Below, piece after piece: positions 3,671-37,322 of a DNA stretch of 62,978 bases. How positions within the stretch are numbered: the first letter of the stretch is position 1; each line of letters begins with the position of its first letter. The translations under genes and the position numbers were made by a program. Origin of the DNA: Bacteroidia bacterium (GTDB lineage: Bacteria; Bacteroidota; Bacteroidia; M30B66). Under the pieces are notes generated by a model. The model was not told where the DNA came from. It was given only the letters and a program-made list of their open reading frames with translations, and made no database searches. Where the stretch lies: NCBI GenBank assembly GCA_046302715.1, contig JBKCHQ010000076.1:1-62978 (forward strand). Direction: 5' to 3'.

Positions 3671-4741
3671 TCACGCTTGAAATTGAGCTTTGCTAAATTT
3701 TCGAAGTCGCTCCCTAACTTCAGCCATGTCCGCAGGTATATCTGAATCAAAAAAATGACGTTCACCCGTTTTAGGATGCATAAATCCTAATGATTTAGCA
3801 TGCAGAGCGTGTCGAGGTAAAATACTAAAACAGTTTTCTATGAATTTGGCATAAGAGCCACTCTTAAGTCCTTTTAATACAGCATTCCCCCCATAGGTAT
3901 CATCATTAAAAAGGGTATGTCCTATGTGTTTTAAATGCACCCTAATCTGATGCGTTCTTCCCGTTTCTAGCCTACATTCAATCCAGGTTAAATAGCCGAA
4001 TCGCTCCAGCACTTTATAATGCGTTACCGCATGTTTACCCTGTGATCCATCAGCATATACAGCAAACAATTTACGATCACGCACATCGCGACCAATGTGA
4101 CCAATAATAGTTCCCTCATCCTGCGCTACATTACCCCAAACCAAGGCCTGATAGGTTCGTTCGGTAGTGCGCTCAAAAAACTGCCTGGCCAAATGCGCCA
4201 AGGCATATTCGCTCTTTGCCAGGACCATGATTCCAGAGGTGTTTTTATCAAGGCGGTGCACCAAACCGGGGCGAGGGTCGTTTTGACTGTAGATAGGCAC
4301 ATGTTGAAAGTGATACATTAATGCATTCACCAAGGTGCCGCTGTAATTCCCATAACCAGGGTGTACTACTAATCCGGCCTGCTTATTTATAACAATTACC
4401 GTATCATCCTCAAAGACGATTTCGAGCGGAATGGGTTCGGGCTTTAATTCAATTTCACGGGGTGGCCTTGCAAAAACGATGGCGATCACATCGCCAGGCT
4501 TAACCCGATAATTTGATTTTACCGGTTTACCATTTACATGAATATTGCCCGTATCGGCGGCTGCCTGGATGCGCGTGCGCGAAGTTTTTTCGAGTCTGTT
4601 TTGTAAAAACTTATCAATCCGTAACAGCTCCTGCCCTTTATCCACCACCGTACGATAGTGCTCGAACAGTTCGTCCCCTTCTGCAGTATGATCGGTATCC
4701 GCCCCCTGCAGCTCCTCGTCATTCCATTCAGGATCCATCAA
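3671..4741 (-). CDS. rluD: RluA/RluD family 23S rRNA pseudouridine synthase
   Basis: S4 domain, NKQAGLVVHPG, HRLDKNTSG, GRTHQIRVH. Confidence 0.93.
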   Translation of the reverse strand: MMDPEWNDEELQGADTDHTAEGDELFEHYRTVVDKGQELLRIDKFLQNRLEKTSRTRIQAAADTGNIHVNGKPVKSNYRVKPGDVIAIVFARPPREIELKPEPIPLEIVFEDDTVIVINKQAGLVVHPGYGNYSGTLVNALMYHFQHVPIYSQNDPRPGLVHRLDKNTSGIMVLAKSEYALAHLARQFFERTTERTYQALVWGNVAQDEGTIIGHIGRDVRDRKLFAVYADGSQGKHAVTHYKVLERFGYLTWIECRLETGRTHQIRVHLKHIGHTLFNDDTYGGNAVLKGLKSGSYAKFIENCFSILPRHALHAKSLGFMHPKTGERHFFDSDIPADMAEVRERLRKFSKAQFQA

Positions 4742-6564
4742 TTGCTTTTAATAAAACGTAAGGCTTTATGCGCCCCCTTTTTAGTCGACACACGCATTAA
4801 ATACATCCCATCGGATAAATCAGCCACTTGTATTGATGCGTGGTTTAATCCAACACCAGCCTTGATCATCTTACCCGAAATATCCCAAACGCTCCAATCG
4901 AAATAATCGATGGATGTTGATTTTATATGAACCACATCTGAGGCTGGATTGGGGTACAAAAGCACCCCGTTTTCAGAGGTGGTCAATGCTGCATTACCGG
5001 TTGGCAAAATATAGGGATAACGGAAAACAGGGCGCATCATAAGTGTTCCAGCTGCCGAAGTATAAGGATACCAATTACCATCTAAATTGTAATAAATGCG
5101 ATTGCTGTTATCGAAATTCAAATCAAAGCCCAGATTAAGTTCGGACGAATTTAACTGTGCCCAACCTATATAATACGTACCTGCTGGCAGCGGTAAGGGC
5201 GTATCTAAAGTATAGGTATGAAAAACGTTTAAGCCTTGATGATCGGGATAGGCAACTTCTTTTTCGAGCAATAACGTACCTGGTTGATTGCTGCCTGCTG
5301 CCCAAATCATTAAATAAAAACTCTGCCCATTATTGGCATTAAGTGTTCGGTTAAAATAAAATTGAACCGCTTTTAACGTGTCGGCCACCCAGCTCTCAAA
5401 ACGTTGTGCGGCAAAGCCTCCGGATGGATTATTGATATTTAGTCTGGCCTCCGCCGAACCATCATCCAATGCATAATAATTGCTAAAAACCTGTTCATAC
5501 TTTAAGGAGTCATTGGGGGCAAAATCATCGTCAAGTCCCTCTAAAAAGTAGTTAAGTTGGTAAACCGTGGTTTCGGTACCCGGATCTTCATAAAAGTACT
5601 TTACCGATTCGTTCAATACATATTCATTCCTGTATGCGATTGGCCCTTGCGGATCAGATGCCACTGAATCTACTTTTTCTCCTGCGGCATTGTAGTAGTC
5701 AAATCCATAAGCTATGTTATCGGAACCCAACTTTAAGGAAGTAAGGGATAGATTAAAAAACTCGAGCATGTTTTCCACCCTGTCTGGAATAAAATGCCAA
5801 AGGGGAACCGACTGATAAAAATCTATTAAACTACTTGCCGGATATAAAAAAGAATAATCGTTAAACAAGGTATCGGCTTTATTCCTGCCGGCAGCAAATT
5901 TTATATAGTCGAGATGCCAGTTATCCCAACTGCCATTCAATTGCGCAAAATTTCTGAACCGAAATTGAAATCCATTGAGTAAATAAGAAGAATCGATTAC
6001 AGGTACAATTGCCTGACTAAACGGTTTGAAGTTTTGCGGATAATCTTCGCCTTTAACGCCCCATACCCTGTTCCAAACTGAATCGGAAGGACTGTAAAAT
6101 TCAAGGATTAAGGAATCAACAAATTCAGGAAAGTTGCCTCTACCGCCGGGTTGGTAAAAAAAACTGAGGTAAAGAGAGTCGCCCGCTGTGTAAGGCATTA
6201 GAAAAGGCTTGGACGTTAGGGTATCGGCCGCACCGTTAACATTTATGTTTTGATAGGGTAACCCGTTGGCATCGGTACCATCCAGTGTAGCTGAACCAAT
6301 ACTAGGGGGAAGCAGTGGAAGTGTTCCATTAACCATGGCAGAATTATCCATCCATCTAACGGGATCAGGCACAGAATTCCCTCTAGAAAAGTCTTCAAAA
6401 AAAGGTAGTGAGAGTATCTCTTCAGAACCACGCGAATTATTGGAAAAAACCTTTGAATCGTCTTGCCTTGAAATGGTAAACGGCGGCTCCACCTTTAAAG
6501 CCTGAGCATTAATCCATGCATTGGCAAACATGGACAACAGTATGCACAAAATACTATTCTTCAT
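4738..6564 (-). CDS. Secreted protein with T9SS type A C-terminal sorting domain
   Basis: Signal peptide; C-terminal LYPNPASD...DISGK...LSDGMYLMRV. Confidence 0.85.
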   Translation of the reverse strand: MKNSILCILLSMFANAWINAQALKVEPPFTISRQDDSKVFSNNSRGSEEILSLPFFEDFSRGNSVPDPVRWMDNSAMVNGTLPLLPPSIGSATLDGTDANGLPYQNINVNGAADTLTSKPFLMPYTAGDSLYLSFFYQPGGRGNFPEFVDSLILEFYSPSDSVWNRVWGVKGEDYPQNFKPFSQAIVPVIDSSYLLNGFQFRFRNFAQLNGSWDNWHLDYIKFAAGRNKADTLFNDYSFLYPASSLIDFYQSVPLWHFIPDRVENMLEFFNLSLTSLKLGSDNIAYGFDYYNAAGEKVDSVASDPQGPIAYRNEYVLNESVKYFYEDPGTETTVYQLNYFLEGLDDDFAPNDSLKYEQVFSNYYALDDGSAEARLNINNPSGGFAAQRFESWVADTLKAVQFYFNRTLNANNGQSFYLMIWAAGSNQPGTLLLEKEVAYPDHQGLNVFHTYTLDTPLPLPAGTYYIGWAQLNSSELNLGFDLNFDNSNRIYYNLDGNWYPYTSAAGTLMMRPVFRYPYILPTGNAALTTSENGVLLYPNPASDVVHIKSTSIDYFDWSVWDISGKMIKAGVGLNHASIQVADLSDGMYLMRVSTKKGAHKALRFIKSN

Positions 6565-7363
6565 CTTCTTCGGGCGCTGTTATTTTGGCTTTTTTCCCTC
6601 TCCATTTCGAGGCATCCTGCGTAAGCCATATGTCCATAAAGGAACCTACTTCAATTTCTTCGAGTTCGTTAACTTCCGGTATTTGCTGATACACCCTTGC
6701 AGAAGAACTATCGCTAATGGTACCATCATATTGAACCACTCCGAGGGTTAGCCCCTCTTCATTTAAGAATTCCTTTACCTCATCCAATGTTTTACCCAAC
6801 AAATCGGGAATAAACACTTTGGGTGTTTCTCCTTTACCCAGCATAAGGTCAATTGAAGAACCTTTATCAATAAGTGTTTCCTTACGAATGGGCTTCCCTT
6901 TATACAATTGCTTCATAACTGGGGGCAAGCCCTCAACATAAATCAGATTGCCCACTTTTAAGCCTACAGTTTCGAGCATAGCAGTAGCCTGACGAAGCGA
7001 TAAATTAACCACATCGGGCATTTTAACTTGCTGCGTCTTTATGCAATTAACAATTAAATACACTTCGCGCCCTGTTTTAACCTTTGCTCCCGGAAGCGGA
7101 TTCTGCTCGATTACCGTCCCCCTCGGCTTTGAGGTATCGTAAATTGAGTCAGTAATCAAATATTCCACGTCATAAGAATCAATAAAGGTGTCTAAATCTT
7201 TAGTGTAAACACCAACAAAATTAGGCACTTTAGTTTCTGACCCGAAACGACTGTAATACTTTAGAAACCATAAAAAGGCAAGTATCGAAAGCACGGATAC
7301 AACAATCGCTGCCAAAACATGCAGCCAAAATTTACGGGTTTTTAAAAATTCCCAAAAGGTCAT
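6554..7363 (-). CDS. Membrane-anchored PASTA-repeat protein
   Basis: N-terminal TM helix; repeats starting VPNFVG, MPDVVNLS and IPDLLGKT, with VIEQNPLPG and VYQQIP; no kinase or PBP domain. Confidence 0.88.
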   Translation of the reverse strand: MTFWEFLKTRKFWLHVLAAIVVSVLSILAFLWFLKYYSRFGSETKVPNFVGVYTKDLDTFIDSYDVEYLITDSIYDTSKPRGTVIEQNPLPGAKVKTGREVYLIVNCIKTQQVKMPDVVNLSLRQATAMLETVGLKVGNLIYVEGLPPVMKQLYKGKPIRKETLIDKGSSIDLMLGKGETPKVFIPDLLGKTLDEVKEFLNEEGLTLGVVQYDGTISDSSSARVYQQIPEVNELEEIEVGSFMDIWLTQDASKWRGKKAKITAPEEDEE

Positions 7364-10053
7364 ATTACAGGATGTACCCGATTGCGTTTTAAGGTATCTT
7401 CTGCAAAAGTCATGATTTTTTCGATAAAGTCATACGGTTTATATCCGTTGATTGCACATTGATGGAAAATACATGTAGCGGGCGTCATACCGGGCAATGA
7501 ATTTACCTCGATAAAAATTACTTCGGTGCGCTCCTGTTCATATACGCGTACAAAAGCATCTATACGACAATAACCCTGCACATTGAGCGCACGCGCTGCA
7601 CGTTCGAGCTCTGTTTTTACTTTATCGGAAATGCGTTGTCGCGCTGCTGAATCACTTGCGTAGCGTGCAGGTGTGATGTTTTGTCCTTGTCCGGCAAGGA
7701 ACTTTTCTTCGAGCGATAACACCTCGCCTTCCGACAATGCTTCAGAAGCCTCGAATACCTCATAACGAATGCTGCCATCGGACTCGAGATGCGTTACCAT
7801 GCCTCCGGTAATTTCGAGAAATTTTGGGGCGCCATTCGCTTGAATAAGCGATTCTACTAAGAATTGTTGCTTGGCCGGAAATTCCTCCTTCGGTTTAATC
7901 TTCAATCGCTCCGAAGCTTCAGCATCTAATGCTTCATCCTGCCTGAAAATCAATTTCGTAAAGGCGATAAAGTCTTCGTCATTGTACAATTTCTTCACCG
8001 CCGAGGAGCAACCATCATCCACAGGCTTGGCAATGAGCGGATAACCAACTGAATTTGCGTGTTGTAGCACATCCATTGCATTGTTTTTCCACTCTTCCTC
8101 ACGCACCACAAAATGTTCGGCCACCAGCATGCCATTTTCTTTTAGAATCTCATTGGTGCGATATTTATCAATGGTAATCGACGACGAATCGGCGTTAGAG
8201 CCATTGTAGGGCAATCCTACTTTTACGAGCTCACGCTGTAATGCACCATCCTCACCCGGTCGGCCATGCAGCGCAATAAACACTTCCTGCACTTCTGCAG
8301 CAAGTGCTGCATAATCCAGCTTTCGGGGTGCATTTAAATTGCCTGTATCGCCGAAATAGCTCGTCAATTCGCCGCATTCGGCAATAATTTTTTTGATGAT
8401 GGGATGCACCGAAAAATGTATAATTTTCTCCCGAATGTCATCGGCATTGTCTTTCAGCATCAAGTTGATGGGCAACGTAAATAATTCATGTGCTGCATCG
8501 GAACCCGAAAGAAAAACTGGAACAGGCTCAAAAACTGATGATGAAGATAGTTTCTCGTAAACATTTCTCCCACTTTCTACCGAGATGTGGCGTTCGGATG
8601 AATAACCTCCAAATACTACGGCAATTCTTTTGCGGCTTTCCTTATTGCTGCGCAGTTCGTGCATAGCGGCATCGAGCTTCTCGAGCAATCGTTCGGCGGA
8701 GTTGTTGAACTTCATCTCCAATGCTCTACGGCGCAAGGATGTGTTTATGATGTAAGTAATAAATTGCGAAGGATTGAACCCAATTTCAGCGGCCTGATGA
8801 AAGAAAAAAGAACTGGGCATCATTCCCGAAGTAGTGTTCGGGTCATTCAGATAAATAGTGCCGTCGGATTTGATGAACCCGTCGATACGGGCATACACGC
8901 CAAACCCAAGTTTGCTGAATAAGTGCGTACAACTTTCGCGGATGCGCTCCAAAGCGGCATCGGGCAGTTCGATGGGCGTAATTTTACGCGACAAGCCGGG
9001 CAGATATTTCGAACGATAATCAAATACTTCCTTACCTTTTCGGATTTCTGTGGGAGGTAAACAAACCGGTTTTCCATTCATGTCTTCGATTACGATGGAC
9101 GAAAATTCTTTGCCTTCGATAAATCCTTCGAGAATAACTTCTGCCTCGGCATCGAGCGATTCGAGAACGATTTCAGATGACTGCTGATTTGTAAACGCTT
9201 GGGCGATGAAATGTTGTAAGGCGTCGGGATGCTGAATGATTTTCGAACCGGCACGAACCGGAATCCCAATACCCTCCCGAATATCGCAGCAGGTGCGAAT
9301 CCATTCATTCTGCGCTTTGGCATCCATGACCATCCAATGTTCTTTTGTGATGCGGCGAACAAAAAGACTTTTGTCGATCGCTTCTGCCAGTTTCGCTGCA
9401 TCGGGTTGATGAATTACCGAAACACCAATGGACGAGCCTTGGGTAGGCGACTTTACAACCAACGGGAAACCGATTTCGCGTTCTGCTTTGTTTAGAATAA
9501 AATTAACATCGCGCTTTTCGAACCACGATTTTCTATCTACTACAAACCATGCCGGCGTTGGAAAGCCAGCCTGCTCCATGAGTAGTTTCTGAATTACTTT
9601 GCTGATGCCAATGCTGCTCGAATAAATTCCGCTGCCGGTGTAAGGAATGTCATAATATTCAAACAAACCTTGAATGCGTCCATCTTCGCCGTAAGGGCCA
9701 TGTAAACATAAAAATGCCACATCGATTAACGTTTTTAATTCAGAGGGCTCAACGATGCGGCCAATTTTAGTGGCCTCGGCTTTTGTGTCAAATCCTGCCA
9801 AAGATTCGGCATATACCTGAAACTCGCCTTCGCTGTGGGGCACGGCTGCCGGATCGGGATAAAAATCACGGATGCTGCCCTTGTAAATGTATTGCCAGTC
9901 GAGTAGAATGAACTGGTTAAAACTATCGACAAACAGCGGTACGGCTTCGAATAAACTTTTGTTTAGGTTGTCATATACCGTACGACCGCCCGCGAACGAA
10001 ATTTCACGCTCTTTCGACCGGCCGCCGAAAACTATTCCCACTTTTAATTTCAT
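7360..10053 (-). CDS. ddl: D-alanine--D-alanine ligase, tandem two-module (897 aa)
   Basis: Two complete Ddl motif sets: FGGRSKEREIS / LHGPYGEDG / RIDG / DPNTTSGM, and FGGYSSERHIS / LHGRPGEDG / RIDA / EVNSLPGM. Confidence 0.92.
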   Translation of the reverse strand: MKLKVGIVFGGRSKEREISFAGGRTVYDNLNKSLFEAVPLFVDSFNQFILLDWQYIYKGSIRDFYPDPAAVPHSEGEFQVYAESLAGFDTKAEATKIGRIVEPSELKTLIDVAFLCLHGPYGEDGRIQGLFEYYDIPYTGSGIYSSSIGISKVIQKLLMEQAGFPTPAWFVVDRKSWFEKRDVNFILNKAEREIGFPLVVKSPTQGSSIGVSVIHQPDAAKLAEAIDKSLFVRRITKEHWMVMDAKAQNEWIRTCCDIREGIGIPVRAGSKIIQHPDALQHFIAQAFTNQQSSEIVLESLDAEAEVILEGFIEGKEFSSIVIEDMNGKPVCLPPTEIRKGKEVFDYRSKYLPGLSRKITPIELPDAALERIRESCTHLFSKLGFGVYARIDGFIKSDGTIYLNDPNTTSGMMPSSFFFHQAAEIGFNPSQFITYIINTSLRRRALEMKFNNSAERLLEKLDAAMHELRSNKESRKRIAVVFGGYSSERHISVESGRNVYEKLSSSSVFEPVPVFLSGSDAAHELFTLPINLMLKDNADDIREKIIHFSVHPIIKKIIAECGELTSYFGDTGNLNAPRKLDYAALAAEVQEVFIALHGRPGEDGALQRELVKVGLPYNGSNADSSSITIDKYRTNEILKENGMLVAEHFVVREEEWKNNAMDVLQHANSVGYPLIAKPVDDGCSSAVKKLYNDEDFIAFTKLIFRQDEALDAEASERLKIKPKEEFPAKQQFLVESLIQANGAPKFLEITGGMVTHLESDGSIRYEVFEASEALSEGEVLSLEEKFLAGQGQNITPARYASDSAARQRISDKVKTELERAARALNVQGYCRIDAFVRVYEQERTEVIFIEVNSLPGMTPATCIFHQCAINGYKPYDFIEKIMTFAEDTLKRNRVHPVI

Positions 10054-15524: not shown

Positions 15525-16622
15525 TTAATGTATTACCACAATTTTCGATGTCGCAACATAATCCTGTCCTTCGGCTTTTACCAAATAGGTTCCGGAGGTT
15601 AAATCATCGATATCTAAAATCGGTAAATTCCCGTCTCCGACTGAAAAATTCACTTTTTTAATTACCCCTCCGCTAAGATCAAGGAGTGAAACCGTAGCAT
15701 CTTCCTTAAGAAAGACCATAACCTGATGCGCTGCAGGGTTAGGATACAGCCCCAATGATGAGGATGCGTTTAGATTACTATTCCCAACATTAACCTCTCC
15801 ATAGGTGTGATTGGTGCTCGAACTAAAGTTTTCCAGAGGTAGGCCAAAGCCTTGATCTGATGAGGATGTGTCATAGGAAATCGTCCACACCGTGAAACTA
15901 GCTCCATTTTGAATATGTACCCATTCGTAGGTCGTATTGCGGGACTCTGAATAACTGGGATTTGGAAATTTAGGATTTAGAGACAAAATCGTATCCAACA
16001 CAATTTCCCGTCGCTTAAAACGGAGAGTGTTGGGGTAAGTGCCTGAACTGGTTACCAATGTTCCATAGCCATCGACCAAATAGCTCGTATTGCCCGTTAC
16101 AGTATTTTCAGGATCTAAGAGGTTAGCGGGGAAGTTTCCGGGCGATACGTAAGTATCAGCATTTTCACTATTTAAGGTAGCTGGGAAAGCGAAAATTGTT
16201 TCCGGATTGCTAAACACTGAGGCGTAAACTCCCGATAGCGACTGGTCGTACAAAACGGTACCCAACAATTCCATTGCATTGTCGGTTGCGCGGGTATAGG
16301 TGTTGAAATAAAAGGTAAGATCATTTGCAATCGTTTCAATAATCGATACACTTGTAGCTGCGGGGAACTGACTGAAAAATGGTGTTTCTGAAGGATCTGC
16401 AATCTCCACGATGTTGGTTGTGCCCGTGTCAGGAAAAGCGGTGAAATTCCATGTTTGGTTGGCACCTCCCGGACCGGGAGTAATGCCGGTTCCATCAACC
16501 AATGTAGTGGTTTTTGTTGTTCCAAAAGGTGGAAGACCTGAAAGATTGAACACCGGCTGTGCAAGCAGCGGTGCGGCGCATAACAAGCATACTGAAAGCG
16601 CCGAGGCGAAAAAATACTTCAT
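15525..16622 (-). CDS. T9SS type A cargo protein (GANQTWNF family), paralog 1
   Basis: Signal peptide; GPGGANQTWNF; C-terminal LYPNPAAH...LTSGTYLV. Confidence 0.85.
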   Translation of the reverse strand: MKYFFASALSVCLLCAAPLLAQPVFNLSGLPPFGTTKTTTLVDGTGITPGPGGANQTWNFTAFPDTGTTNIVEIADPSETPFFSQFPAATSVSIIETIANDLTFYFNTYTRATDNAMELLGTVLYDQSLSGVYASVFSNPETIFAFPATLNSENADTYVSPGNFPANLLDPENTVTGNTSYLVDGYGTLVTSSGTYPNTLRFKRREIVLDTILSLNPKFPNPSYSESRNTTYEWVHIQNGASFTVWTISYDTSSSDQGFGLPLENFSSSTNHTYGEVNVGNSNLNASSSLGLYPNPAAHQVMVFLKEDATVSLLDLSGGVIKKVNFSVGDGNLPILDIDDLTSGTYLVKAEGQDYVATSKIVVIH

Positions 16623-16648
16623 ATTACAAGGATAGATTTAGGTTAATC

Positions 16649-17695
16649 TTAGCGCGTAATAACTAATTTGCCAAATGCCGAATAGCCCTTAGCTGTTGCC
16701 TGAACGATATAGGTTCCAGAAGGAATATCAGAAACATTCATTAGGGGCATTGAGCCATCTGCTATAGAATAATCCTGCACTCGAACAGTGCGGCCTCCAA
16801 TATCTAAAAGCGAGACACGGGCATCATTAGGAAGCATAAACAATACTTGATTGCTGGCCGGATTTGGAAAAATAGATAAAAGTGCAGGCGACATGGATTC
16901 AATGCCTACATTGGCAAAATTGCCTTGCGTGTGTATAACACTTTGAGTGTAGGTATCAGGTTGACCAAAAGTGCCAAGGGTAGTGTCGTTAGAAATCGAC
17001 CAAATGCCTAATGTTGCCCCAGGCCCCACAGTTACCCATTCGTAGGTGGTGTTTCTTGCTTCTGTTATAAAATCGCCAAAGTCGGTGATGGTTGAATCAA
17101 TGCTTATGTCACGCTTTTTAATGCGTAAGGTATTGGAATAGGTTCCTGCTGTTGTAACAAGGGTTCCATAGCCATCTATGACATAATTTTGCGTTCCTGT
17201 TGATACAAAAGTAGCCCCAAAATCGGCAATAAATGCCTCGCTTCGGTAAGTATCACTAAGGGTGCTATTGTAAGTGCCCGGAAATCCATAAATAGTTTGC
17301 GGATTAGTGTATACGTTGTTGAACTGGGTTGTGCCATCAGAAAAGGCCGCTCCTACCAATTCTAAAGCTGCCGAAGATTCTTTAATATAACCATAAATAG
17401 CGGATGTATCCGTAATATTGGCGTATGCAATTGTAGCCGATGGAAAGGTTGATGCAAAAGGAGTTGACTCGGGAGAAACAAATGTGAAAGAGTCCACTGC
17501 ACCGGTATCGGGATAGGCAGTAAAATTCCAGGTTTGATTGGCTCCCGCAGCACCCGGACTAATTCCTGCAGCATCAACAGAGCTTGAAAAAATAACGGTT
17601 CCCAAGTCGGGCATGCCACTCAAATTCATGGTGGGTTGCGCCATAATGCCTGCGGCTGTTAACAGAGATGAAAAAAGTAGTAAAGTTGATTTCAT
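16649..17695 (-). CDS. T9SS type A cargo protein (GANQTWNF family), paralog 2
   Basis: Signal peptide; GAAGANQTWNF; C-terminal IFPNPASN...IPSGTYIV; second in-frame ATG chosen as start. Confidence 0.85.
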   Translation of the reverse strand: MKSTLLLFSSLLTAAGIMAQPTMNLSGMPDLGTVIFSSSVDAAGISPGAAGANQTWNFTAYPDTGAVDSFTFVSPESTPFASTFPSATIAYANITDTSAIYGYIKESSAALELVGAAFSDGTTQFNNVYTNPQTIYGFPGTYNSTLSDTYRSEAFIADFGATFVSTGTQNYVIDGYGTLVTTAGTYSNTLRIKKRDISIDSTITDFGDFITEARNTTYEWVTVGPGATLGIWSISNDTTLGTFGQPDTYTQSVIHTQGNFANVGIESMSPALLSIFPNPASNQVLFMLPNDARVSLLDIGGRTVRVQDYSIADGSMPLMNVSDIPSGTYIVQATAKGYSAFGKLVITR

Positions 17696-17768
17696 GGATT
17701 TGTATTTAAATTTAAACATGTCAAAACTAAAGCAAATATATTCAGAGATATATGACTAAAAATTGCTT

Positions 17769-19133
17769 TTAAATTAAACTTTCAACAAAGTACATATCAA
17801 TAGCGCCTTTGCCTTTGGCCTCAATTTTTCCACGGTAGGTGCACTGATAGTAGTCTTTAACCAGGGAATAGGTAGAATCCGAAATATTTACCTTGCCGGG
17901 CTCGCCCGAACTTTCCATGCGGCTAGCCATGTTAACGGTATCGCCCCAAATATCGTATTGAAATTTATGAGTCCCAACTACGCCCGCAACAACGGGACCG
18001 CTATGCAAGCCGATGCGCACATCAAAAAAGGGATCACGATTAAGCAAAGCTCTGCTTTTATTGGCATCAATCCATAATTTTATTTCGAGGGCGGCTTTAA
18101 CGGTTTTATAAGCATGGTCGGGGTCATTTAGCGGAATACCGCCCACAGCCATATAGGCATCACCAATGGTTTTTATTTTCTCAACCCCGTTGCGTTCCAT
18201 TATGGCATCAAATTCTGAAAAATAGGTATTAATTAAATCCACCAGATCCGAAGTGTTTAAACGTTCCGAAATTGCAGTAAACCCTTTAAAGTCGGTAAAC
18301 AATACCGTTGTATTTTGATATAAGCGTGCCTTCGTGAAACCCGTCTCTTTTAATTCATCCGCTATGCGATGGGGCAAAATATTCAGCAACAGATTGTCGC
18401 TTTTTTCTTTTTCCTTCATTACCTGAACGTTTTGCTCACGAATGGTATCGGTTGCTTTAGCTACCTCCAGTTCCAGCTTTTCGGCGCGCTTAATAAGCCG
18501 ATAATTTCTCCAGCCGATAAAACTCCATACAGAGGCCACTGTTAAAACGATATAAACACCAATCATCCAAATAGTTTTCCACCAAGGCGGGCAAATTTCA
18601 AAGTCGAAGGGCTCAGCCTGGCTCCAGTTTTTTCCGTTACGCGTTGACTTCACTAAAAACCGATATTTGCCCGGCTCAAGATTGGCATATCTAACCGCCG
18701 TAGCATGTTGCTGGCTGCTCCAATAATCGTCGGCACCTTCGAGCATCCATGAATATTTAATATTTGAAGCTTGATACTGGCTTACTCCTGCAAACGAAAA
18801 CGAAATAAAATTATTGGTGTGCGGCAGAACAAGATTTTTTGGCAATTGATGCCATTTGTCAAAAGAGGCATATTCAACGGGGCCGAGCTTAATGCCTGCA
18901 GGGGTAGTCACCTCTTTTTGAAAAATACTGCGCCAATCATGATTTTCACCGAAGAGATTAACACCATTAACATGGGTTTCATGAATATTGCTTTTTAAGG
19001 ATACTTCATCATGTTCCATTAGGCTTATTTGTGAATTTGAAATAATCCACGTTTTGCCATCTGTTGTATTTATAGCACCATCACGTACAATGCCCACTCC
19101 CGTAAAGCCATCTTCAAAGGCAATTTGTTGCAT
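17769..19133 (-). CDS. Y_Y_Y-TM-class III adenylate cyclase; C-terminal part of a split sensor cyclase
   Basis: YSWMLEG..YRFLVKS (YYY), TM helix, TVLFTDFKGFT, KIKTIGDAYM, FQYDIWGDTVNMASRMES. Confidence 0.9.
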   Translation of the reverse strand: MQQIAFEDGFTGVGIVRDGAINTTDGKTWIISNSQISLMEHDEVSLKSNIHETHVNGVNLFGENHDWRSIFQKEVTTPAGIKLGPVEYASFDKWHQLPKNLVLPHTNNFISFSFAGVSQYQASNIKYSWMLEGADDYWSSQQHATAVRYANLEPGKYRFLVKSTRNGKNWSQAEPFDFEICPPWWKTIWMIGVYIVLTVASVWSFIGWRNYRLIKRAEKLELEVAKATDTIREQNVQVMKEKEKSDNLLLNILPHRIADELKETGFTKARLYQNTTVLFTDFKGFTAISERLNTSDLVDLINTYFSEFDAIMERNGVEKIKTIGDAYMAVGGIPLNDPDHAYKTVKAALEIKLWIDANKSRALLNRDPFFDVRIGLHSGPVVAGVVGTHKFQYDIWGDTVNMASRMESSGEPGKVNISDSTYSLVKDYYQCTYRGKIEAKGKGAIDMYFVESLI

Positions 19134-21158
19134 TTATGGAGGTTCGTTAAAGTATTTTGGCTTTTTCATTTTACTTAACCCTAAAGCATGGCCGAAAATG
19201 AGATTGCCCAAATAATCCTGTTGAATAAAAAACACCGAGTTATCCAACAAGCCTTCGTTAGTTGTATAATGCACCAAATTGTTTTGACGCATCCTTATAG
19301 CTCCATCCTTCTCGGTTCCAATCCAAACATCGCCCTCGACATCTTCCTTTAAACACAAAAGTTTTATTGGAACATTCGAGCGCTTTACACTAAAATATCG
19401 AATTTCGTTTTTAGAGATTTGTGCAACTGCATTGTCGTAGAGCACCCACAGTGTTCCGGATATGTCCATGTGCAGCTTACGAATCAATCCTTTTGCATCG
19501 TCCTGTTTAATATTGGTGGCCACCAGTCTTTTTCCGACCCATTTAAAAATTTCGTTCTCGGTAGCCACCCAAATAGTACCCAAGCGATCGCAATGTATAT
19601 CAGTAATATAACTGGATTGGACATTCGCTTTATCAAACCAAGTTACCGTAGATTTAGTGTTATCTATTACCCCCAAACCTACATCTACTGTTCCTACCCA
19701 AATATTGCCAGTTGTATCTCGTGTGAGACAGGAAATCTTCAAATTTTCATCCTTACGCCCGAGATCAATTTGAGTAACATTGTTTTTCTTTAATTCAATA
19801 ATACCCGCCCCCGAGCTTCCCATCCACATGGTTTCTTGGTCAAGCTCGAGCAGCGTTTTTATTTTTTGCGAGAAAATTGCTTGCGAAATATGATAAAAAC
19901 CGGTATTCCCCAAACGCGAAAGTCCGCTGCCATAAGAACTAACCCAAAGACTACCTTCTTTGTCATGAAGCAAGTCTATGGTCATAAGCCCAGATATGCC
20001 TGTCCCATTTCCGTATCGTGTGATAGTTCCATCTTTTAAGCGGGCTATTCCTTGACCATAAATGGCCAACCAAAGCGAACTATCGCTGCGCCACTCTAAA
20101 TCTGAAATGCTTGCATTTTTAAGAACCTTTGTATCATAAGTATAAAAACTATTATGATTCCAGAACAATAACCCAACATTTGGTGTCCCAATAATGAGGT
20201 TGTTATCGCTATCTTTATTCAAAGACCACATTGTACTATCGGGCAAGCCCTGTTTATCGGTGTATCGCTTTACCTTTTTATTTCCGATAAAGCTGATGCC
20301 TTTTGTACCTACTGCTGCCATTATGCCTCCATTAAGCTCCAAAAAACGCCAAATTATATTTCCGGGAGCACCCTGTGAGGCATTAAAGTTTGCAATACGG
20401 CCCTTTTCAATTATAGAGATGCCTGCCTCGTTCGAGCCTGCCCAAATACGACCTTTCGAATCGGTGTAGAGGGTATTAATGGAATTGGAGCAAAGGCCTT
20501 GTTCCACAGTATATTGTTTGAGCATATATCCGTCGAAGCAAAACAAGCCTTTATCGTTACTGCCGATCCAAATATTGCCGATGCTATCTGTACAGAGGCT
20601 AAAAATATCGTTGCTTGGAAGCCCTTGGTCTGCCGAAAAATTGAAGAAATGTGTTCCGTCGAAACGCGTTATGCCGCTACGTTGATGGGCAAGCCAGATA
20701 AACCCTGAGTGGTCCTGAATAATTGCACGCAACGATTGATCGGGAAGGCCTTGCCGAATACCCAACAGCGAAAAACCATGGGGATTAATTTCTCGGGAAT
20801 CATATGGCGAAGCATCCACTTTTTTGGGCGCCCCCATTATAATTTGAATTGGATTTTTTTGCGGGGCGATAAAGTTAAAATTCCAAGCAGGAAAAGAATC
20901 AGGGGCAGTAGTTGGAATAAGCCGCAGCGAATATTGGCCGCTTGAATCTCGGGTTTCGAGTTTAGAAATGGGGTTGCGTTTTACAGCTTTTTTAAGCAGA
21001 ATTTGAAGAGATGCGGAGGTATCGATTTGGAGTCGATCTTTCCATATTTCTTTACAGATTATTGCATTATTACTGTGAATGGGATCGATCGCAGAATCGC
21101 GGCAAGCAGTAAATAACAAGATCAGCAAGAAAAAAAGATATGCGATCCTGTATGTCAT
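19134..21158 (-). CDS. Lipoprotein with two-component regulator propeller (Reg_prop) repeats; N-terminal part of a split sensor cyclase
   Basis: Lipobox LFTAC; many D..GNIWIG repeats; ends in TAA immediately followed by the in-frame ATG of the cyclase ORF. Confidence 0.85.
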   Translation of the reverse strand: MTYRIAYLFFLLILLFTACRDSAIDPIHSNNAIICKEIWKDRLQIDTSASLQILLKKAVKRNPISKLETRDSSGQYSLRLIPTTAPDSFPAWNFNFIAPQKNPIQIIMGAPKKVDASPYDSREINPHGFSLLGIRQGLPDQSLRAIIQDHSGFIWLAHQRSGITRFDGTHFFNFSADQGLPSNDIFSLCTDSIGNIWIGSNDKGLFCFDGYMLKQYTVEQGLCSNSINTLYTDSKGRIWAGSNEAGISIIEKGRIANFNASQGAPGNIIWRFLELNGGIMAAVGTKGISFIGNKKVKRYTDKQGLPDSTMWSLNKDSDNNLIIGTPNVGLLFWNHNSFYTYDTKVLKNASISDLEWRSDSSLWLAIYGQGIARLKDGTITRYGNGTGISGLMTIDLLHDKEGSLWVSSYGSGLSRLGNTGFYHISQAIFSQKIKTLLELDQETMWMGSSGAGIIELKKNNVTQIDLGRKDENLKISCLTRDTTGNIWVGTVDVGLGVIDNTKSTVTWFDKANVQSSYITDIHCDRLGTIWVATENEIFKWVGKRLVATNIKQDDAKGLIRKLHMDISGTLWVLYDNAVAQISKNEIRYFSVKRSNVPIKLLCLKEDVEGDVWIGTEKDGAIRMRQNNLVHYTTNEGLLDNSVFFIQQDYLGNLIFGHALGLSKMKKPKYFNEPP

Positions 21159-27255: not shown

Positions 27256-29445
27256 ATGACATTAAATCAATTACGCGTATTTTTAACTTTTTGTGTTTTA
27301 GGTAGTGTAAATTCGCTCCATGCGCAATTAACCATTACACAATCTCCGGCCAATAACCTCGTTGAGAATGTTTTAGTTGGCGCGGGAATTCAGGTGACTA
27401 ACGTAACCTCTGGCGGCAATGCCGATCAGATTGGAACGTTTACAAACGGCAACACGGTTAACCTCGGAGTAGCAAATGGTGTAATGATGACTACCGGTAG
27501 TTTTACTACGCAGTCGGATCAGGCATCTGGGCCCGGATACATTGGTTCTGCTGCAAATGCAGGCACAAGCTCAACTTCTGGTGCCAATACTTTAGCCGAC
27601 GACCCTGATTTAAATACCATAATCTCAAGCTTTGGGGCTCCCGCCACCACTAACAATATTGCCTTAATTGAATTTGATTTCGTTCCGGCTGGCGATTCGG
27701 TTGCTTTTAACTATGTATTTGCCTCTGAAGAGTACAACGGTTTTGTGTGCTCTCAGTTTTTTGATGTGTTCGGTTTCTTTATATCCGGCCCGGGTATAAA
27801 TGGCCCATATGCCAACAATTCAGAAAATATTGCCGTAGTGCCCAATACCAATCCTGCCTTGCCGGTAAGTATGAATACCATCAACAGTGGTTTTAGTGAT
27901 GGAGGAATCTATTGCCCGCCCGGCGGTTTAAACAATCAGGCCTATTTTGTGGACAACAGCGGAAGCAGCAACTTTTCGCCTTATGGATACACCTCCGTTC
28001 TTACGGCTCAAGCCAACGTGCAGTGCGGCGAAACGTATCACATTAAACTAATCCTTGCCAACGGATCCGATCAATCCTACGATTCATGGGTGTTTCTTGA
28101 AGCCGAATCGTTTAGTTCATCCATACCGGATATTACCATTGCTAATTTACTTCCCGACTCTGCCTTTATTGAAGGATGCACCACGGGCGAAATTGTATTT
28201 CGTCGTAATTTAGCAGAAGATTCACTTATCATTCCTTTAGTATTTTCGGGCTCTGCGCAAAACGGAACCGATTATACCGGCCTTCCCGATTCGCTCATCT
28301 TCTTGCCCGGGCAAGATTCTATTTACTATGAATTACAACCTGCAGATGACGGCATCAGCGAAGGTGTTGATGGTTACGAAGAAATTGTAATCTCATTCGT
28401 TGTGGTAAACGAGTGCGGACAGGATTTCCCGGTAGAGAAAAAATTAAAAATTCGCGATCCGTATGAGATTAATCCCGGGCTCAACGATACGTTGCTTTTA
28501 TGTCCAAAGGACAATTTCTTAATTGCATCAAATCCAACAGGCGGATATGAGCCCTATTCCTTTATTTGGAACGATTCTGCCGGCACCACGAGTTCGTCGT
28601 TTACCTTCGATATTAATACTACTCAAACCTTTATAGTGCAGGTTAAAGATTCGCTGAATTGCCCCAATCAACCCTTTGCCGACACCATTACCGTAACCAT
28701 GGAGTACCAGGATTTAACTCCTGAATTTTCGATTCAAACGTTGTGCGAAGGCGATACTACAGTGCTGGTAGCTCAGGTCGAAAACGGACTTGAACCCTTT
28801 ATTTATTCCTGGTCAACCGGCGAACTCAACGATTCCATTACTGTGGTGGCCAGCGATTCTACCTTTTACACCTTCACGGTGGAGGATGCTTGCGGCTTTG
28901 AGGTTACCGATACCGCATTTGTGAATGTACCCATTTACGATTCTTTGATTGTTACCACTTTTGACACTACTGTTTGTTCTAATAATCCCATTGCCGGGCT
29001 TTTAGGATTTGCCTCAGGAGGAAACGGAATTTACACCTATGATTTTGACGGACCGGGAGATATTACATTTTTAAGCGATACTACGGCAACCGTTACAGTT
29101 TCAGGCCCATCGCAATACATCGTTACAGTTACCGACGGATGCGGAACCATTGCAGTAGATACGATAACCGTAAATGTTGAGGCCTGCGAATTGATTGCCT
29201 ACAATGCTTTTTCACCAAACGGCGATGGTAAAAATGATTTTTTCACCATACCAAGCATCCAGTATTATCCAGGCTCGACGGTGTATATTTTTAACCGCTG
29301 GGGCAAGAAAATTTTCGAAAAAACCGATTATCAGAACGACTGGAGCGGCAGCGATGTGCTTACCTCCGGAACCTATTATTATGTAATTGATCCGGGCGAT
29401 GGCAGCCAGCAGCTGAAGGGCTACGTTACCGTATTTAAGGACTAA
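27256..29445 (+). CDS. Choice-of-anchor L-like domain protein with gliding-motility-associated (CHU_C, T9SS type B) C-terminus
   Basis: IEFDFVP..FNYVFASEEY..F.CS.FFD.FGFFISGPG; C-terminal NAFSPNGDGKNDFF..IFNRWG..GTYYY. Confidence 0.85.
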   Translation: MTLNQLRVFLTFCVLGSVNSLHAQLTITQSPANNLVENVLVGAGIQVTNVTSGGNADQIGTFTNGNTVNLGVANGVMMTTGSFTTQSDQASGPGYIGSAANAGTSSTSGANTLADDPDLNTIISSFGAPATTNNIALIEFDFVPAGDSVAFNYVFASEEYNGFVCSQFFDVFGFFISGPGINGPYANNSENIAVVPNTNPALPVSMNTINSGFSDGGIYCPPGGLNNQAYFVDNSGSSNFSPYGYTSVLTAQANVQCGETYHIKLILANGSDQSYDSWVFLEAESFSSSIPDITIANLLPDSAFIEGCTTGEIVFRRNLAEDSLIIPLVFSGSAQNGTDYTGLPDSLIFLPGQDSIYYELQPADDGISEGVDGYEEIVISFVVVNECGQDFPVEKKLKIRDPYEINPGLNDTLLLCPKDNFLIASNPTGGYEPYSFIWNDSAGTTSSSFTFDINTTQTFIVQVKDSLNCPNQPFADTITVTMEYQDLTPEFSIQTLCEGDTTVLVAQVENGLEPFIYSWSTGELNDSITVVASDSTFYTFTVEDACGFEVTDTAFVNVPIYDSLIVTTFDTTVCSNNPIAGLLGFASGGNGIYTYDFDGPGDITFLSDTTATVTVSGPSQYIVTVTDGCGTIAVDTITVNVEACELIAYNAFSPNGDGKNDFFTIPSIQYYPGSTVYIFNRWGKKIFEKTDYQNDWSGSDVLTSGTYYYVIDPGDGSQQLKGYVTVFKD

Positions 29446-35711: not shown

Positions 35712-37322
35712 TTAGGATAAATCGTCATTCCATCTGCACATAATCAATAAATTTCCATTGGGGCTCATTGCTGCTAGAAGTGTCTTAAACAATCTAGAAT
35801 GCGCTGAACTCATAAACGTAAACAGGCTCTCGCTGCGTTCGCTAAGTGCACCGGTAGGAAATACGGTGGCATATACCGAACGGATTTGCCCTAAGCGCTC
35901 CGCTTCTTTTTTACGGGCCTCTCGAAGCATTTTTTTCTGAAAATTCTCAAGTTGTTTCTTGAGCCTCACCTGCATGGCTCTTGCCGAACGTTTGGTGGGG
36001 AGATTCACTGCGGTTGCCTTCTCTTCTATGCTTTTAAACATGGTATCAAAGGCCTCAAGTTCATTGGATAGATCGAGCATACCTTGTGAATCAGATAAAA
36101 GTTTGCGGCGTTCAATTTCAATGAGCGGCAATAATAAGTCGGCCCAAATAAAGCCCGAATTTTCGAGGCGATGAAAAGACGCTCCATCCATCAAAACTGC
36201 AGAGTTACGAAGTAAAAGAGCCGGAAACACTACCGAATAATGCTCCATTACCGACTTTAACTCGAGCCAGTAGGCTATTTCGGCAGCACCGCCAAAGGTG
36301 GCAATATTTGGGAGTATGAATTCCTGATACACCGGCCTCATTAAGGCATTGGGAGAAAAACGCTCGGGATATAAGCGAATTTCGGTCTTTAATGAATTAG
36401 CCTCCCAAGTATAACTTTGATCCGTAGTTTTAAAACCCTCAGTATCCTTTTCAATACGCTCGCGGTAATTATCTTTTAAATAGAAAAAATTAATGTCTCG
36501 CCCCTGCAATTGCACCGGGTAGCGATGCGAAATAGTATCAATGGCGTTGCGACTAAGTGTATAACTGCGGCTGTTTAAAATATCATCCTCTATAATTGAT
36601 GCAAACGATGACTTTAATTGAACATCATCGGCATCTATACAAAGAAGCCCCAATTGACCAAATATATGATGCACCAGATAGCGTGTGGCCATAGCCAGTG
36701 TGGGCAAGGAATATGCGTCCGTAAGCAGTTGGCGCCAATTGGGGATAATCGAAAAAACGTCTGATTGCTGCAGCCACTCCAAGACGGCAGCACAAGGCAT
36801 GCGCCCGGCGGGGCCGTTGTATTGAAGTGGACACGTGTACTTTTTACCGTGAATGGTAAATGAGCGAATTTCGTCGATATCGTGGTCTTCGGTGGCCATC
36901 CAGAAAACGGGAATAAAATCCTTATCGGCGTATTTATTTTTTAAATCAACACACAAAGCCACTGCCGAAAGTATTTTTAGTGGTGTGTAGAGCGGACCCA
37001 GCAAAATACCCACCTGTTGGCCTGTAGTAACCGTAAAGGTAGTGGGTTTAAGCAACTTATTAATTATTGACTCGCTTGCAGCATTTAAAATGCCTGTAGC
37101 AGCGTATTGATTTTTGAGCACATCCACTAAGACGTTACGCTTTTGTGCATCAAACGATTGACGTTGTGCTATTAGTGCCTCAAAATTGGGATTAAGAGGC
37201 GATGTACTTCGTAAAGCATGAAAAAACGAATCGTCGTTGCAATAATCGCTGGCTATTCGGGTTAAAAGACCTGATTGGGAGTGGGGGACAGAAAATAATG
37301 CATCCAATGCCATGCGATCCAA
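35712..37322 (-). CDS. bshC: Bacillithiol biosynthesis cysteine-adding enzyme BshC
   Basis: VTTGQQ..LLGPLY, PVFWMATEDHD, FSPNALMRP.YQE.ILP, GGAAEIAYW, ER. Confidence 0.92.
   Translation of the reverse strand: MDRMALDALFSVPHSQSGLLTRIASDYCNDDSFFHALRSTSPLNPNFEALIAQRQSFDAQKRNVLVDVLKNQYAATGILNAASESIINKLLKPTTFTVTTGQQVGILLGPLYTPLKILSAVALCVDLKNKYADKDFIPVFWMATEDHDIDEIRSFTIHGKKYTCPLQYNGPAGRMPCAAVLEWLQQSDVFSIIPNWRQLLTDAYSLPTLAMATRYLVHHIFGQLGLLCIDADDVQLKSSFASIIEDDILNSRSYTLSRNAIDTISHRYPVQLQGRDINFFYLKDNYRERIEKDTEGFKTTDQSYTWEANSLKTEIRLYPERFSPNALMRPVYQEFILPNIATFGGAAEIAYWLELKSVMEHYSVVFPALLLRNSAVLMDGASFHRLENSGFIWADLLLPLIEIERRKLLSDSQGMLDLSNELEAFDTMFKSIEEKATAVNLPTKRSARAMQVRLKKQLENFQKKMLREARKKEAERLGQIRSVYATVFPTGALSERSESLFTFMSSAHSRLFKTLLAAMSPNGNLLIMCRWNDDLS

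Follow-up and report, generated by a model that had tools for sequence, protein, structure and literature searches.

Architecture of the locus

[quoted passage not shown] The gene was defined from the list of open reading frames, Pfam, NCBIfam, an AlphaFold (AF2) model, Foldseek and independent assemblies. The source organism is a freshwater Bacteroidota. A Pfam scan of the 897-aa protein yields two matches to Dala_Dala_lig_N and four stretches of Dala_Dala_lig_C, and the segment KRIAVVFGG marks the start of module 2 at aa 475 (nt 8631), which bears out a sequence-only reading of two full Ddl modules with a boundary near 8635. Module 1 (aa 1-445, 8719..10053) was delimited by alignments to E. 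coli DdlB and by residues invariant across the family, and module 2 (aa 475-897, 7363..8631) by HMMER alignment against PDB entry 1IOW, hhalign and family invariance; each is a full Ddl. The intervening linker (aa 446-474, 8632..8718) is helical, with AF2 helices at 428-446 and 452-469. The two modules share just 24-25% identity. Against NCBIfam TIGR01205 (cut-off 245.65) the full-length protein reaches 373.6 bits, and the separate modules score 225 bits (module 1) and 155 bits (module 2), both below that cut-off.

The suggested check by AlphaFold yielded a confident model (pLDDT 82.9, pTM 0.83), whose top PDB neighbours in Foldseek are Ddl, DdlA, LmDdl2, VanA and VanG; Ddl structures match it with target-normalised TM-scores of 0.71-0.84. 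The fold and domain order are those of E. coli DdlB (PDB 2DLN/1IOV) and the DdlA type (PDB 3I12), and the Leuconostoc enzyme LmDdl2 (PDB 1EHI) is also a good structural neighbour. The omega-loop lids lie at aa 339-357 of module 1 (8983..9039, including FDYRSKY), where the model has one of its only two long low-confidence segments, and at aa 773-792 of module 2 (7678..7737, including LSLEEKF, low pLDDT).

The tandem protein carries insertions that are extra to canonical Ddl. The large insertion per module noted previously is in fact two in each, relative to E. coli DdlB. In module 1, insertion 1 (aa 43-100, 9754..9927) was identified by alignments with E. coli DdlB and class comparison, and insertion 2 (aa 215-303, 9145..9411) by class comparison, AF2 secondary structure and dN. 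The latter is folded in the model into strands and helices, and is confined to the Bacteroidota class; the Dependentiae and alpha classes lack it. Of the regions tested, it and the linker are among those with the highest dN. In module 2, insertion 1 (aa 517-576, 8326..8505; alignments, AF2 model, class comparison) is helical, and insertion 2 (aa 690-728, 7870..7986; class comparison, hhalign) is also present in the alpha class.

A single contig from independent metagenome assemblies covers positions 6500-8821 without gaps or indels and thereby takes in the module boundary and module 2 as well as the junction and the downstream PASTA gene; overlapping unitigs extend to 10100. Uninterrupted open reading frames with the family motif occur in 74 species-level genomes and exceed 800 aa in 73 of these. 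Together, these observations show that the single tandem reading frame is no assembly artefact.

The downstream partner gene (6554..7363) encodes a single-pass membrane PASTA protein of 269 aa, assigned from Pfam PASTA matches, an NF033483 match, the junction and hydropathy. Its start overlaps the ddl stop in the sequence ATGA. Hydropathy shows one transmembrane (TM) helix at about aa 12-36; the PASTA repeats, which Pfam detects in two stretches, come after it. The protein aligns to positions 331-549 of NF033483 with 89.6 bits (cut-off 450), matching the TM helix and PASTA-repeat part of PknB/Stk1-type kinases; a Ser/Thr kinase domain is absent from the 269-aa partner. In three relatives (P0123, P0124 and P0127), which are homologous end to end, the tandem Ddl, TM helix and PASTA repeats are fused in one chain. 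Among 67 Bacteroidota loci, a PASTA gene lies directly 3' of the tandem ddl in 32, and about half lack it.

Active-site residues of the two modules

All six motifs quoted in the sequence-only reading were located within a few bases of where it had placed them. Those of module 1 are QGSSIG (aa 205-210, nt 9424-9441), FDYRSKY (aa 344-350, nt 9004-9024) and NDPNTTSGM (aa 403-411, nt 8821-8847), and those of module 2 are DGCSSA (aa 680-685, nt 7999-8016), LSLEEKF (aa 779-785, nt 7699-7719) and EVNSLPGM (aa 849-856, nt 7486-7509). Residues were mapped onto DdlB by MAFFT, by HMMER against 1IOW, the deposited Y216F DdlB, and by profile-profile alignment with hhalign. The three methods agree that Cys682 corresponds to S150, Phe785 to Y216 and Asp404 to E270, so the proposed assignment of Glu-Ser-Tyr with an E270D-like change to module 1, and of Glu-Cys-Phe to module 2, holds.

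In module 1 the canonical triad is Glu15/Ser207/Tyr350. Ser207 (codon 9433..9435) was placed at S150 by motif search, MAFFT, hhalign and the family survey, and Tyr350 (9004..9006) was aligned with Y216, where Tyr is found in 360 of 360 family proteins. Asp404 (8842..8844) occupies the position of the Mg-bridging Glu270 and is likewise Asp in 360/360, while Phe416 lies at L282. The DdlB residues E15, S150, Y216, R255, S281 and L282 thus become E, S, Y, R, S and F in module 1. In module 2 they become E, C, F, R, T and C, with Cys682 (8008..8010; Cys in 356/360, Ser in 4/360) at S150, Phe785 (7699..7701; Phe in 359/360) at Y216, Thr860 at S281 and Cys861 at L282. Relative to canonical Ddl, the substitutions are Glu270Asp and Leu282Phe in module 1, and Ser150Cys, Tyr216Phe, Ser281Thr and Leu282Cys in module 2.

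Apart from these module-specific exceptions, the ATP, Mg and substrate ligands match those of canonical Ddl. The metal/ATP site of module 2 is canonical (Lys630, Lys676, Glu734, Glu747, Lys784, Asp832, Glu849 and Asn851), retaining 8/8 of the DdlB ATP/Mg2+ ligands K97, K144, E180, E187, K215, D257, E270 and N272; module 1 retains 7/8, with Asp replacing Glu270. An Asp in place of Glu270 is uncommon among ATP-grasp enzymes and might impair module 1.

Family distribution and genomic context

The tandem Ddl is a member of a large and deeply conserved family of two-module ligases, an ancient format, rather than the peculiar single protein that it had first appeared to be. Relatives were counted in at least 574 species genomes of Bacteroidota. 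The proposed conservation survey covered 360 proteins of three phylum-level classes, labelled Bacteroidota, Dependentiae and Alphaproteobacteria, and found near-fixed signature residues: Ser/Tyr and Asp270 in module 1, Cys/Phe and Glu270 in module 2. Of the ATP, Mg and substrate positions 16 were tracked, and in both modules of these proteins all of them vary little or not at all; at the L282 position only module 2 has a smaller residue (Cys, Val or Ala). The dN/dS ratio is about 0.02 for each module core. The invariant Asp, followed by Pro, Ile or Phe and then Asn, has the appearance of a metal site that is maintained rather than dead. The Dependentiae carriers have small genomes of 1.0-1.6 Mb. 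PGAP often labels relatives as 'hypothetical protein' or 'ATP-grasp domain-containing protein'.

In degenerate PASTA fusions the catalytic residues decay in both modules together, and no lineage shows a clean loss of one module. This joint decay suggests that the two sites are functionally linked; catalysis is evidently dispensable in these forms.

As with canonical Ddl, some relatives of the tandem gene occupy housekeeping positions. One alphaproteobacterial MAG has it at the place of ddl, in the order murE-murF-mraY-murD-ftsW..murB-[tandem ddl]-ftsQ-ftsA..ftsZ-lpxC, and in another the order is dapB-dapA-dapD..[tandem ddl]-class A PBP (PBP1A). Non-peptidoglycan contexts also occur, namely a copy in Methanosarcina, an archaeon without murein, and an HTH-fused relative that adjoins ankyrin genes. 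In the 63-kb window the context consists of the PASTA protein, T9SS cargo and RluD.

The two-module architecture is not unique to these bacteria, as plant chloroplast DDL has already been described in print as one polypeptide in which two putative DDL enzymes are fused (PMC9954125). The plant proteins (Physcomitrella PpDDL BAE45860, Arabidopsis At3g08840 and rice BAF22630), compared here by their published description, resemble the tandem Ddl in the two-module chain; they differ in being eukaryotic and nuclear-encoded with a transit peptide, and have no known PASTA partner. The plant literature reports that knockout of the moss DDL blocks D-Ala dimerisation and plastid division, and that plant DDL is nearest to FCB or 'Chlamydiae/CFB' bacteria, with CFB/FCB-type donors proposed. 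Such closeness would fit a bacterial tandem ancestor like the present family. Homolog searches with the tandem Ddl returned bacterial matches only, with no plant DDL among them.

Functional interpretation

The gene probably encodes the lineage's housekeeping D-Ala-D-Ala ligase, a two-site covalent pseudo-heterodimer coupled to a PASTA protein. The architecture, residue mapping, conservation, genomic contexts and fusions on which this reading draws are observed. Canonical Ddl is a homodimer of identical chains, whereas the tandem Ddl joins two modules in one chain. The two complete, non-equivalent ATP-grasp ligase modules, connected by the helical linker, most likely replace the usual homodimer by an intramolecular pseudo-heterodimer, a geometry that we infer. 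Both modules retain their ligands for ATP, Mg2+ and substrate in full and are probably catalytic. The main product would be D-Ala-D-Ala, destined for MurF; towards the second substrate, module 2 with its Phe-type site is probably less selective kinetically, or has another preference. Counterpoints to this reading are that the separate modules, at 225 and 155 bits, stay under the curated NCBI threshold for Ddl (245.65), that the Asp of module 1 might impair it, that Phe at 216 is the hallmark of the depsipeptide ligases of lactic acid bacteria (PMC5996685), that the Methanosarcina and HTH-fused copies have non-peptidoglycan surroundings, and that a PASTA gene is missing from about half of the Bacteroidota loci.

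An enzyme with two products is a reading that we regard as unlikely; in it, module 1 would make D-Ala-D-Ala, and module 2 would form D-Ala-D-lactate or some other D-Ala-D-X. Stem peptides with two kinds of terminus, as the sequence-only reading had envisaged, would then be made constitutively, or else a second dipeptide would serve another purpose. The Tyr/Phe specificity rule invoked there is documented, in that a single Tyr/Phe switch at the Y216 position decides between dipeptide and depsipeptide in lactic-acid-bacterial Ddl (PMC5996685). Module 2, and it alone, shares Phe at this position (F261 of LmDdl2) with LmDdl2 and Lactobacillus Ddl. In addition to Phe785 it has Cys682 at S150 and the smaller residue at L282, and the module differences are fixed across phyla, which implies that a property peculiar to site 2 is under selection. 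That the Phe-type site forms a second product is chemically plausible, but unsupported by context. The known Phe-type D-Ala-D-lactate ligases are single-module enzymes, and compared with them module 2 lacks the FYDY lid aromatics, has Cys at S150 and is without D-lactate supply genes nearby. A Pfam search of the 30 neighbouring proteins in the 63-kb window found no D-lactate dehydrogenase (VanH/LdhD), VanX-type dipeptidase or racemase, and relatives occupy ordinary housekeeping slots. The Y216F variant of DdlB still makes D-Ala-D-Ala, so that Phe alone is compatible with dipeptide synthesis. Against the D-Ala-D-Lac model NF000206 module 2 scores 88 bits and module 1 109 bits (cut-off 550), against the D-Ala-D-Ser model module 2 scores 78 bits (cut-off 520), and both modules are far under the cut-offs of all Van ligase models, although such low scores say little about LmDdl2-type chemistry because the models are built on VanA-type enzymes. 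The similarity of module 2 to the D-Ala-D-Lac model is not above generic Ddl similarity. Furthermore, moss, with its two-module DDL, is reported to accumulate only the ordinary UDP-MurNAc-DAP-pentapeptide (PMC9434261), the plant enzyme being compared by its published description.

A catalytic and regulatory pair, also raised by the sequence-only reading, is disfavoured and appears quite improbable. Here one module would turn over and the other would serve as a scaffold or as an allosteric D-Ala/ATP sensor, with either module 1 crippled by Glu270Asp or module 2 lacking the hydrogen-bond triad. Each module is indeed changed at a mechanistically important position, and the degenerate PASTA-fused relatives keep the tandem scaffold without catalysis, which points to some non-catalytic value of the scaffold. 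However, neither module shows a relaxed catalytic ligand in the 360 sequences, the two cores have equally low dN/dS, the degenerate forms lose both modules together, and the context of the invariant Asp resembles a maintained metal site. It is very improbable that the protein is instead an accessory tandem ATP-grasp ligase for another dipeptide or depsipeptide and that the genome carries a canonical ddl at a different place. The scores of the single modules under the Ddl family cut-offs, the noncommittal PGAP names, the copies in murein-free Methanosarcina and the HTH fusions beside ankyrin genes would fit such a role. In contrast, the exact ddl slot of the dcw cluster in one alphaproteobacterial MAG and the neighbouring dap genes and PBP1A in another, the spread of the family over at least 574 species genomes of Bacteroidota and over reduced genomes of Dependentiae, the coupling to a PASTA protein of the peptidoglycan-binding type, and the requirement for the two-module DDL in D-Ala-D-Ala formation in a plant (moss) argue against it.

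A parallel for divided labour after duplication is provided by the large subunit of carbamoyl-phosphate synthetase (PDB 1BXR/1JDB), which also holds two homologous ATP-grasp units in one polypeptide; both units stayed catalytic while their roles diverged. Foldseek aligns it with the tandem model over the whole chain (TMq 0.40-0.45, identity 10-11%). Its chemistry differs, and it serves as an analogy rather than as a relative within Ddl.

The tandem Ddl appears to be translationally coupled to the membrane-anchored PASTA protein and is fused to PASTA repeats in relatives. The predicted topology of the fused forms, with the enzyme in the cytoplasm, one TM helix and PASTA repeats outside, recalls that of PknB/Stk1-type kinases; unlike these, the present system lacks a kinase domain and has a ligase as its cytoplasmic partner. 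Such coupling or fusion would anchor the enzyme at the inner membrane or connect it with the sensing of peptidoglycan in the periplasm.

Two-module architecture and active sites

The tandem Ddl gene (7360-10053, minus strand) encodes a protein of 897 amino acids according to the ORF list. The six motifs quoted in the sequence-only reading were all found, each displaced by at most a few bases from where that reading had placed it. Module 2 begins at residue 475 (nt 8631). Pfam detects two copies of the Ddl N-domain, and its matches to the Ddl C-domain fall into four stretches of the protein. The whole protein scores 373.6 bits against NCBIfam TIGR01205, and 37 solved Ddl/Van ligase sequences match it. 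Scored separately, module 1 reaches 225 bits and module 2 155 bits, relative to the Ddl cut-off of 245.65; because single modules fall below this value, in some cases PGAP annotates a relative as "hypothetical protein" or "ATP-grasp domain-containing protein". Neither module scores near the D-Ala-D-Lac and D-Ala-D-Ser models.

The single ORF is real, because independent metagenome assemblies span it gap-free: one contig without gaps covers 6500-8821 and overlapping unitigs reach 10100. The fraction read of the raw-read run X22 gave zero coverage of the locus. An assembly or frameshift artefact is ruled out by these gap-free assemblies over both junctions and by the same ORF in hundreds of genomes. 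A recent duplication or lineage-specific oddity is also ruled out, by the recurrence of the active-site signature across phyla and by the identity between modules 1 and 2 of only 24-25%.

The AlphaFold2 model, computed with an alignment of 58 family members as input, is confident (pLDDT 82.9, pTM 0.83). Its only long low-confidence segments, residues 339-357 and 773-792, both align to the ω-loop lid of Ddl. Foldseek ranks DdlA, Ddl, LmDdl2, VanG and VanA as the best neighbours; it also aligns the whole chain with carbamoyl-phosphate synthetase, the textbook case of two ATP-grasp units in tandem.

Residue mapping rests on three sequence/profile methods, with numbering after the DdlB and DdlA encoded by the E. 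coli K-12 genome. MAFFT, HMMER against 1IOW (the deposited Y216F DdlB) and profile-profile hhalign gave the same mapping; for the E180/E187 region of module 2 the placement was taken from the profile alignment, which overrides the first MAFFT alignment. The module 1 residues are E15, H118, K152, K201, S207 (equivalent to S150), E309 (E180), E316 (E187), K349, Y350 (Y216), R389, D391, D404 (E270), N406, S415 and F416 (L282). Those of module 2 are E487, H596, K630, K676, C682 (S150), E734, E747, K784, F785 (Y216), R830, D832, E849 (E270), N851, T860 (S281) and C861 (L282). Since the three methods concur, the earlier assignment of module 1 as Glu-Ser-Tyr with an E270D-like change, and of module 2 as Glu-Cys-Phe, is correct.

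Distribution and conservation of the family

The tandem Ddl gene is far from unique and belongs to a very large bacterial family. The protein search returned 120 full-length homologues at 60-93% identity among the matches listed, and when each species was represented by a single genome, a relative was present in at least 574 genomes, the best 80 of which are all Bacteroidota MAGs with full-length tandem proteins, the complete Ca. Pollutiaquabacter aromativorans genome CP185379.1 included. GCA_037200005.1 is another complete genome with a tandem gene. Size classes were defined by an exhaustive profile-free search of 50% representatives. Forms of ~900 residues descend to about 41% identity, and forms of ~1200 residues are also present. 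A class of ~800 residues (32-35% identity) derives from MAGs labelled Alphaproteobacteria and Bdellovibrionales, and a compact class of ~740 residues (39-42% identity) from Dependentiae/Babeliales, on contigs of 1.0-1.6 Mb, among them a 1.6-Mb contig of ERZ25039592. Homolog searches aimed at the ~800- and ~740-residue classes gave bacterial matches only. The Bacteroidota-type gene was also seen on contigs labelled "Synechococcus sp. UW140", "Candidatus Saccharibacteria bacterium", "Chitinophaga pinensis" and others (loci L009, L044, L024, L040, L045 and L079), which are probably mislabelled or contaminated bins.

The active-site signature is essentially invariant across 360 proteins of three classes (Bacteroidota, Dependentiae and Alphaproteobacteria-labelled). 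Module 1 has Ser150/Tyr216, and Asp at position 270, in 360/360 proteins. In module 2, Cys150 is found in 356 of the 360, with Ser in the other 4; Phe216 and Glu270 are each present in 359, Thr281 in nearly all, and position 282 is Cys or Val. The remaining ATP, Mg and substrate ligands are conserved in both modules. Comparison with the closest relative gives a dN/dS of about 0.02 for each of the two cores, an approximate value as dS is near saturation; the ratio is usable for the comparisons with the relatives' loci L002 and L003 only, dS being saturated for more distant relatives. The linker and insertion 2 of module 1 evolve fastest. Only the Bacteroidota class and, in part, the Alphaproteobacteria-labelled class have the large insertions, and the ancestral tandem Ddl was compact, of about 2×370 amino acids.

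Genomic context and PASTA coupling

In an alphaproteobacterial MAG the gene order is murE-murF-mraY-murD-ftsW..murB-[tandem ddl]-ftsQ-ftsA..ftsZ-lpxC; here, between murB and ftsQ, the tandem gene takes the place that housekeeping ddl has in the dcw cluster. A different MAG has the tandem ddl flanked by dapB-dapA-dapD on one side and a class A PBP gene on the other. The window has the order tandem ddl, PASTA protein, T9SS cargo and RluD-type pseudouridine synthase, an order shared by some of the Bacteroidota loci. No D-lactate dehydrogenase, VanX-type dipeptidase or racemase was found in the window, and no second ddl in the flanks (up to 10 kb) of any of the 80 best loci.

The PASTA gene (6554-7363, minus strand) overlaps the ddl stop codon in an ATGA motif; its product, a single TM helix with PASTA repeats behind it, matches the TM and PASTA portion of PknB-type kinases. 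Of the 67 Bacteroidota loci whose flanks were long enough, 32 have a PASTA gene immediately after the tandem ddl, as a rule overlapping it or at a distance of 1-7 nt; thus, the coupling is clade-specific and defines a sub-clade. In about half of the Bacteroidota loci (L014, L018, L019 and ~30 others) the fetched flanks contain no PASTA gene, which rules out universal coupling.

The ~1200-residue relatives unite the two Ddl modules, a TM helix and PASTA repeats in a single polypeptide, with end-to-end homology to the PASTA protein of the window. Three of these fused forms (P0123, P0124 and P0127) keep the catalytic signature. In about eleven other fusions of ~1100-1240 residues (P0167, P0171, P0172, P0181, P0182, P0184, P0197, P0206, P0218, P0225 and P0273) the catalytic residues have decayed in both modules, and these proteins are apparent pseudoenzymes. 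No canonical ddl was seen adjoining the degenerate fusions; the locus of P0273 (L085:10001-13720) has a Bacteroidota context, with a T9SS-tail gene still downstream. The double-Ddl scaffold tied to PASTA seems, from these sequences, to have a non-catalytic role.

T9SS sorting domains (Por_Secre_tail or CHU_C) occur on large proteins at 4738-6564, 15525-17719, 27256-29445 and 33349-35688 of the window. One T9SS-tail gene is inserted between the PASTA gene and rluD, a placement kept in many related loci.

Function and significance

The best-supported reading is that of a D-Ala-D-Ala ligase with a housekeeping role and a conserved two-module format, in which both sites would be maintained for catalysis, each with its own fixed differences; in the window organism, the ligase may be tethered or linked to the PASTA membrane protein. 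A division of labour, with module 2 as a dedicated second-specificity ligase forming D-Ala-D-lactate or another D-Ala-D-X, could be reflected in the fixed asymmetry of the two sites, but we regard it as unlikely. The DdlB Y216F mutant retains D-Ala-D-Ala synthesis, and no genomic context points to a second physiological product. Of the proposal that one polypeptide makes two stem-peptide termini, what stands is its chemical plausibility, as the Phe/Tyr rule for the second substrate of Ddl (PMC5996685) would allow altered second-substrate behaviour of module 2.

Both sites are completely conserved, and in the degenerate fusions the two modules decay jointly; this speaks against the alternative proposal of a catalytic/regulatory heterodimer, in which one module would be a pseudoenzyme. 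The dcw-slot and dap/PBP contexts of relatives likewise speak against an accessory role outside peptidoglycan, but such a role may hold for outliers such as a Methanosarcina copy and HTH-fused copies. The former, catalytically intact, lies at L090:8001-10409 on CP195120.1, a 5.08-Mb chromosome labelled Methanosarcina sp. T3, an archaeon without murein. Its variable surroundings, with a Y1 transposase gene and AAA-ATPase genes close by, suggest horizontal acquisition or a non-peptidoglycan use. Among the ~800-residue class, some members carry an N-terminal HTH_3/HigA-like DNA-binding domain and one a GNAT acetyltransferase domain, with the full catalytic signature kept (P0364, P0371 and P0374-P0381, about 900 residues; P0294, 949 residues). 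The one HTH-fused copy examined for context (L092:7001-9724) adjoins an ankyrin-repeat gene, not peptidoglycan genes.

D-cycloserine targets Ddl, an essential enzyme whose second-substrate site acts as the molecular switch in vancomycin resistance. Across Bacteroidota, Dependentiae and Alphaproteobacteria-labelled lineages, the housekeeping enzyme of this family consistently pairs two dissimilar active sites, a Tyr-type site in which a metal ligand is altered and a Phe/Cys-type site. Were the division of labour true, large Gram-negative groups, and possibly plastids, would routinely make two precursor termini from one polypeptide, and the PASTA-coupled or -fused forms might tune the output by periplasmic muropeptide sensing, which would make them the first example of direct wiring between a PASTA sensor and a cytoplasmic enzyme of peptidoglycan-precursor synthesis. 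Judging from the fusions to the PASTA membrane protein, precursor synthesis may be physically connected to the envelope, a link not noticed before.

The two-module architecture is already published for plant DDL (PMC9954125); in bacterial genomes it is annotated but unnamed. The searchable literature yielded no relevant study of a bacterial tandem Ddl, the "tandem" of one match referring to tandem alanines, and neither the bacterial family with its phylum-wide asymmetric signature and Asp270 change nor the coupling and fusion to PASTA appeared in it. Knockout of moss DDL abolishes D-Ala dimerisation and produces macrochloroplasts, and Arabidopsis T-DNA lines still express the C-terminal half of DDL (PMC9954125); UDP-MurNAc-DAP-pentapeptide of the ordinary form accumulates in moss (PMC9434261). 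Plant DDL was reported nearest to homologues of Fibrobacteres-Chlorobi-Bacteroidetes or of "Chlamydiae/CFB bacteria" (the latter in PMC3493653), an affinity that would fit a bacterial tandem ancestor like the present family. The bacterial proteins may serve as a model for the plant enzyme and its two halves.

Elsewhere in the window, an adenylate/guanylate cyclase with a Y_Y_Y domain (17769-19133, minus strand) lies directly downstream of a 674-residue protein of two-component-regulator propeller repeats (19134-21158, minus strand); together they resemble a periplasmic sensor-cyclase that has been split or, possibly, frameshifted. A homologue of the bacillithiol biosynthesis protein BshC (PF10079, E 5e-89; 35712-37322, minus strand) adjoins a MiaB/RimO-type radical-SAM methylthiotransferase in this Bacteroidota genome. 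Two overlapping genes at 47066-49091 (minus strand) encode an AIR-synthase-related (SelD-like) protein and a rhodanese-domain protein, an arrangement that would fit a selenophosphate synthetase/tRNA 2-selenouridine synthase pair.
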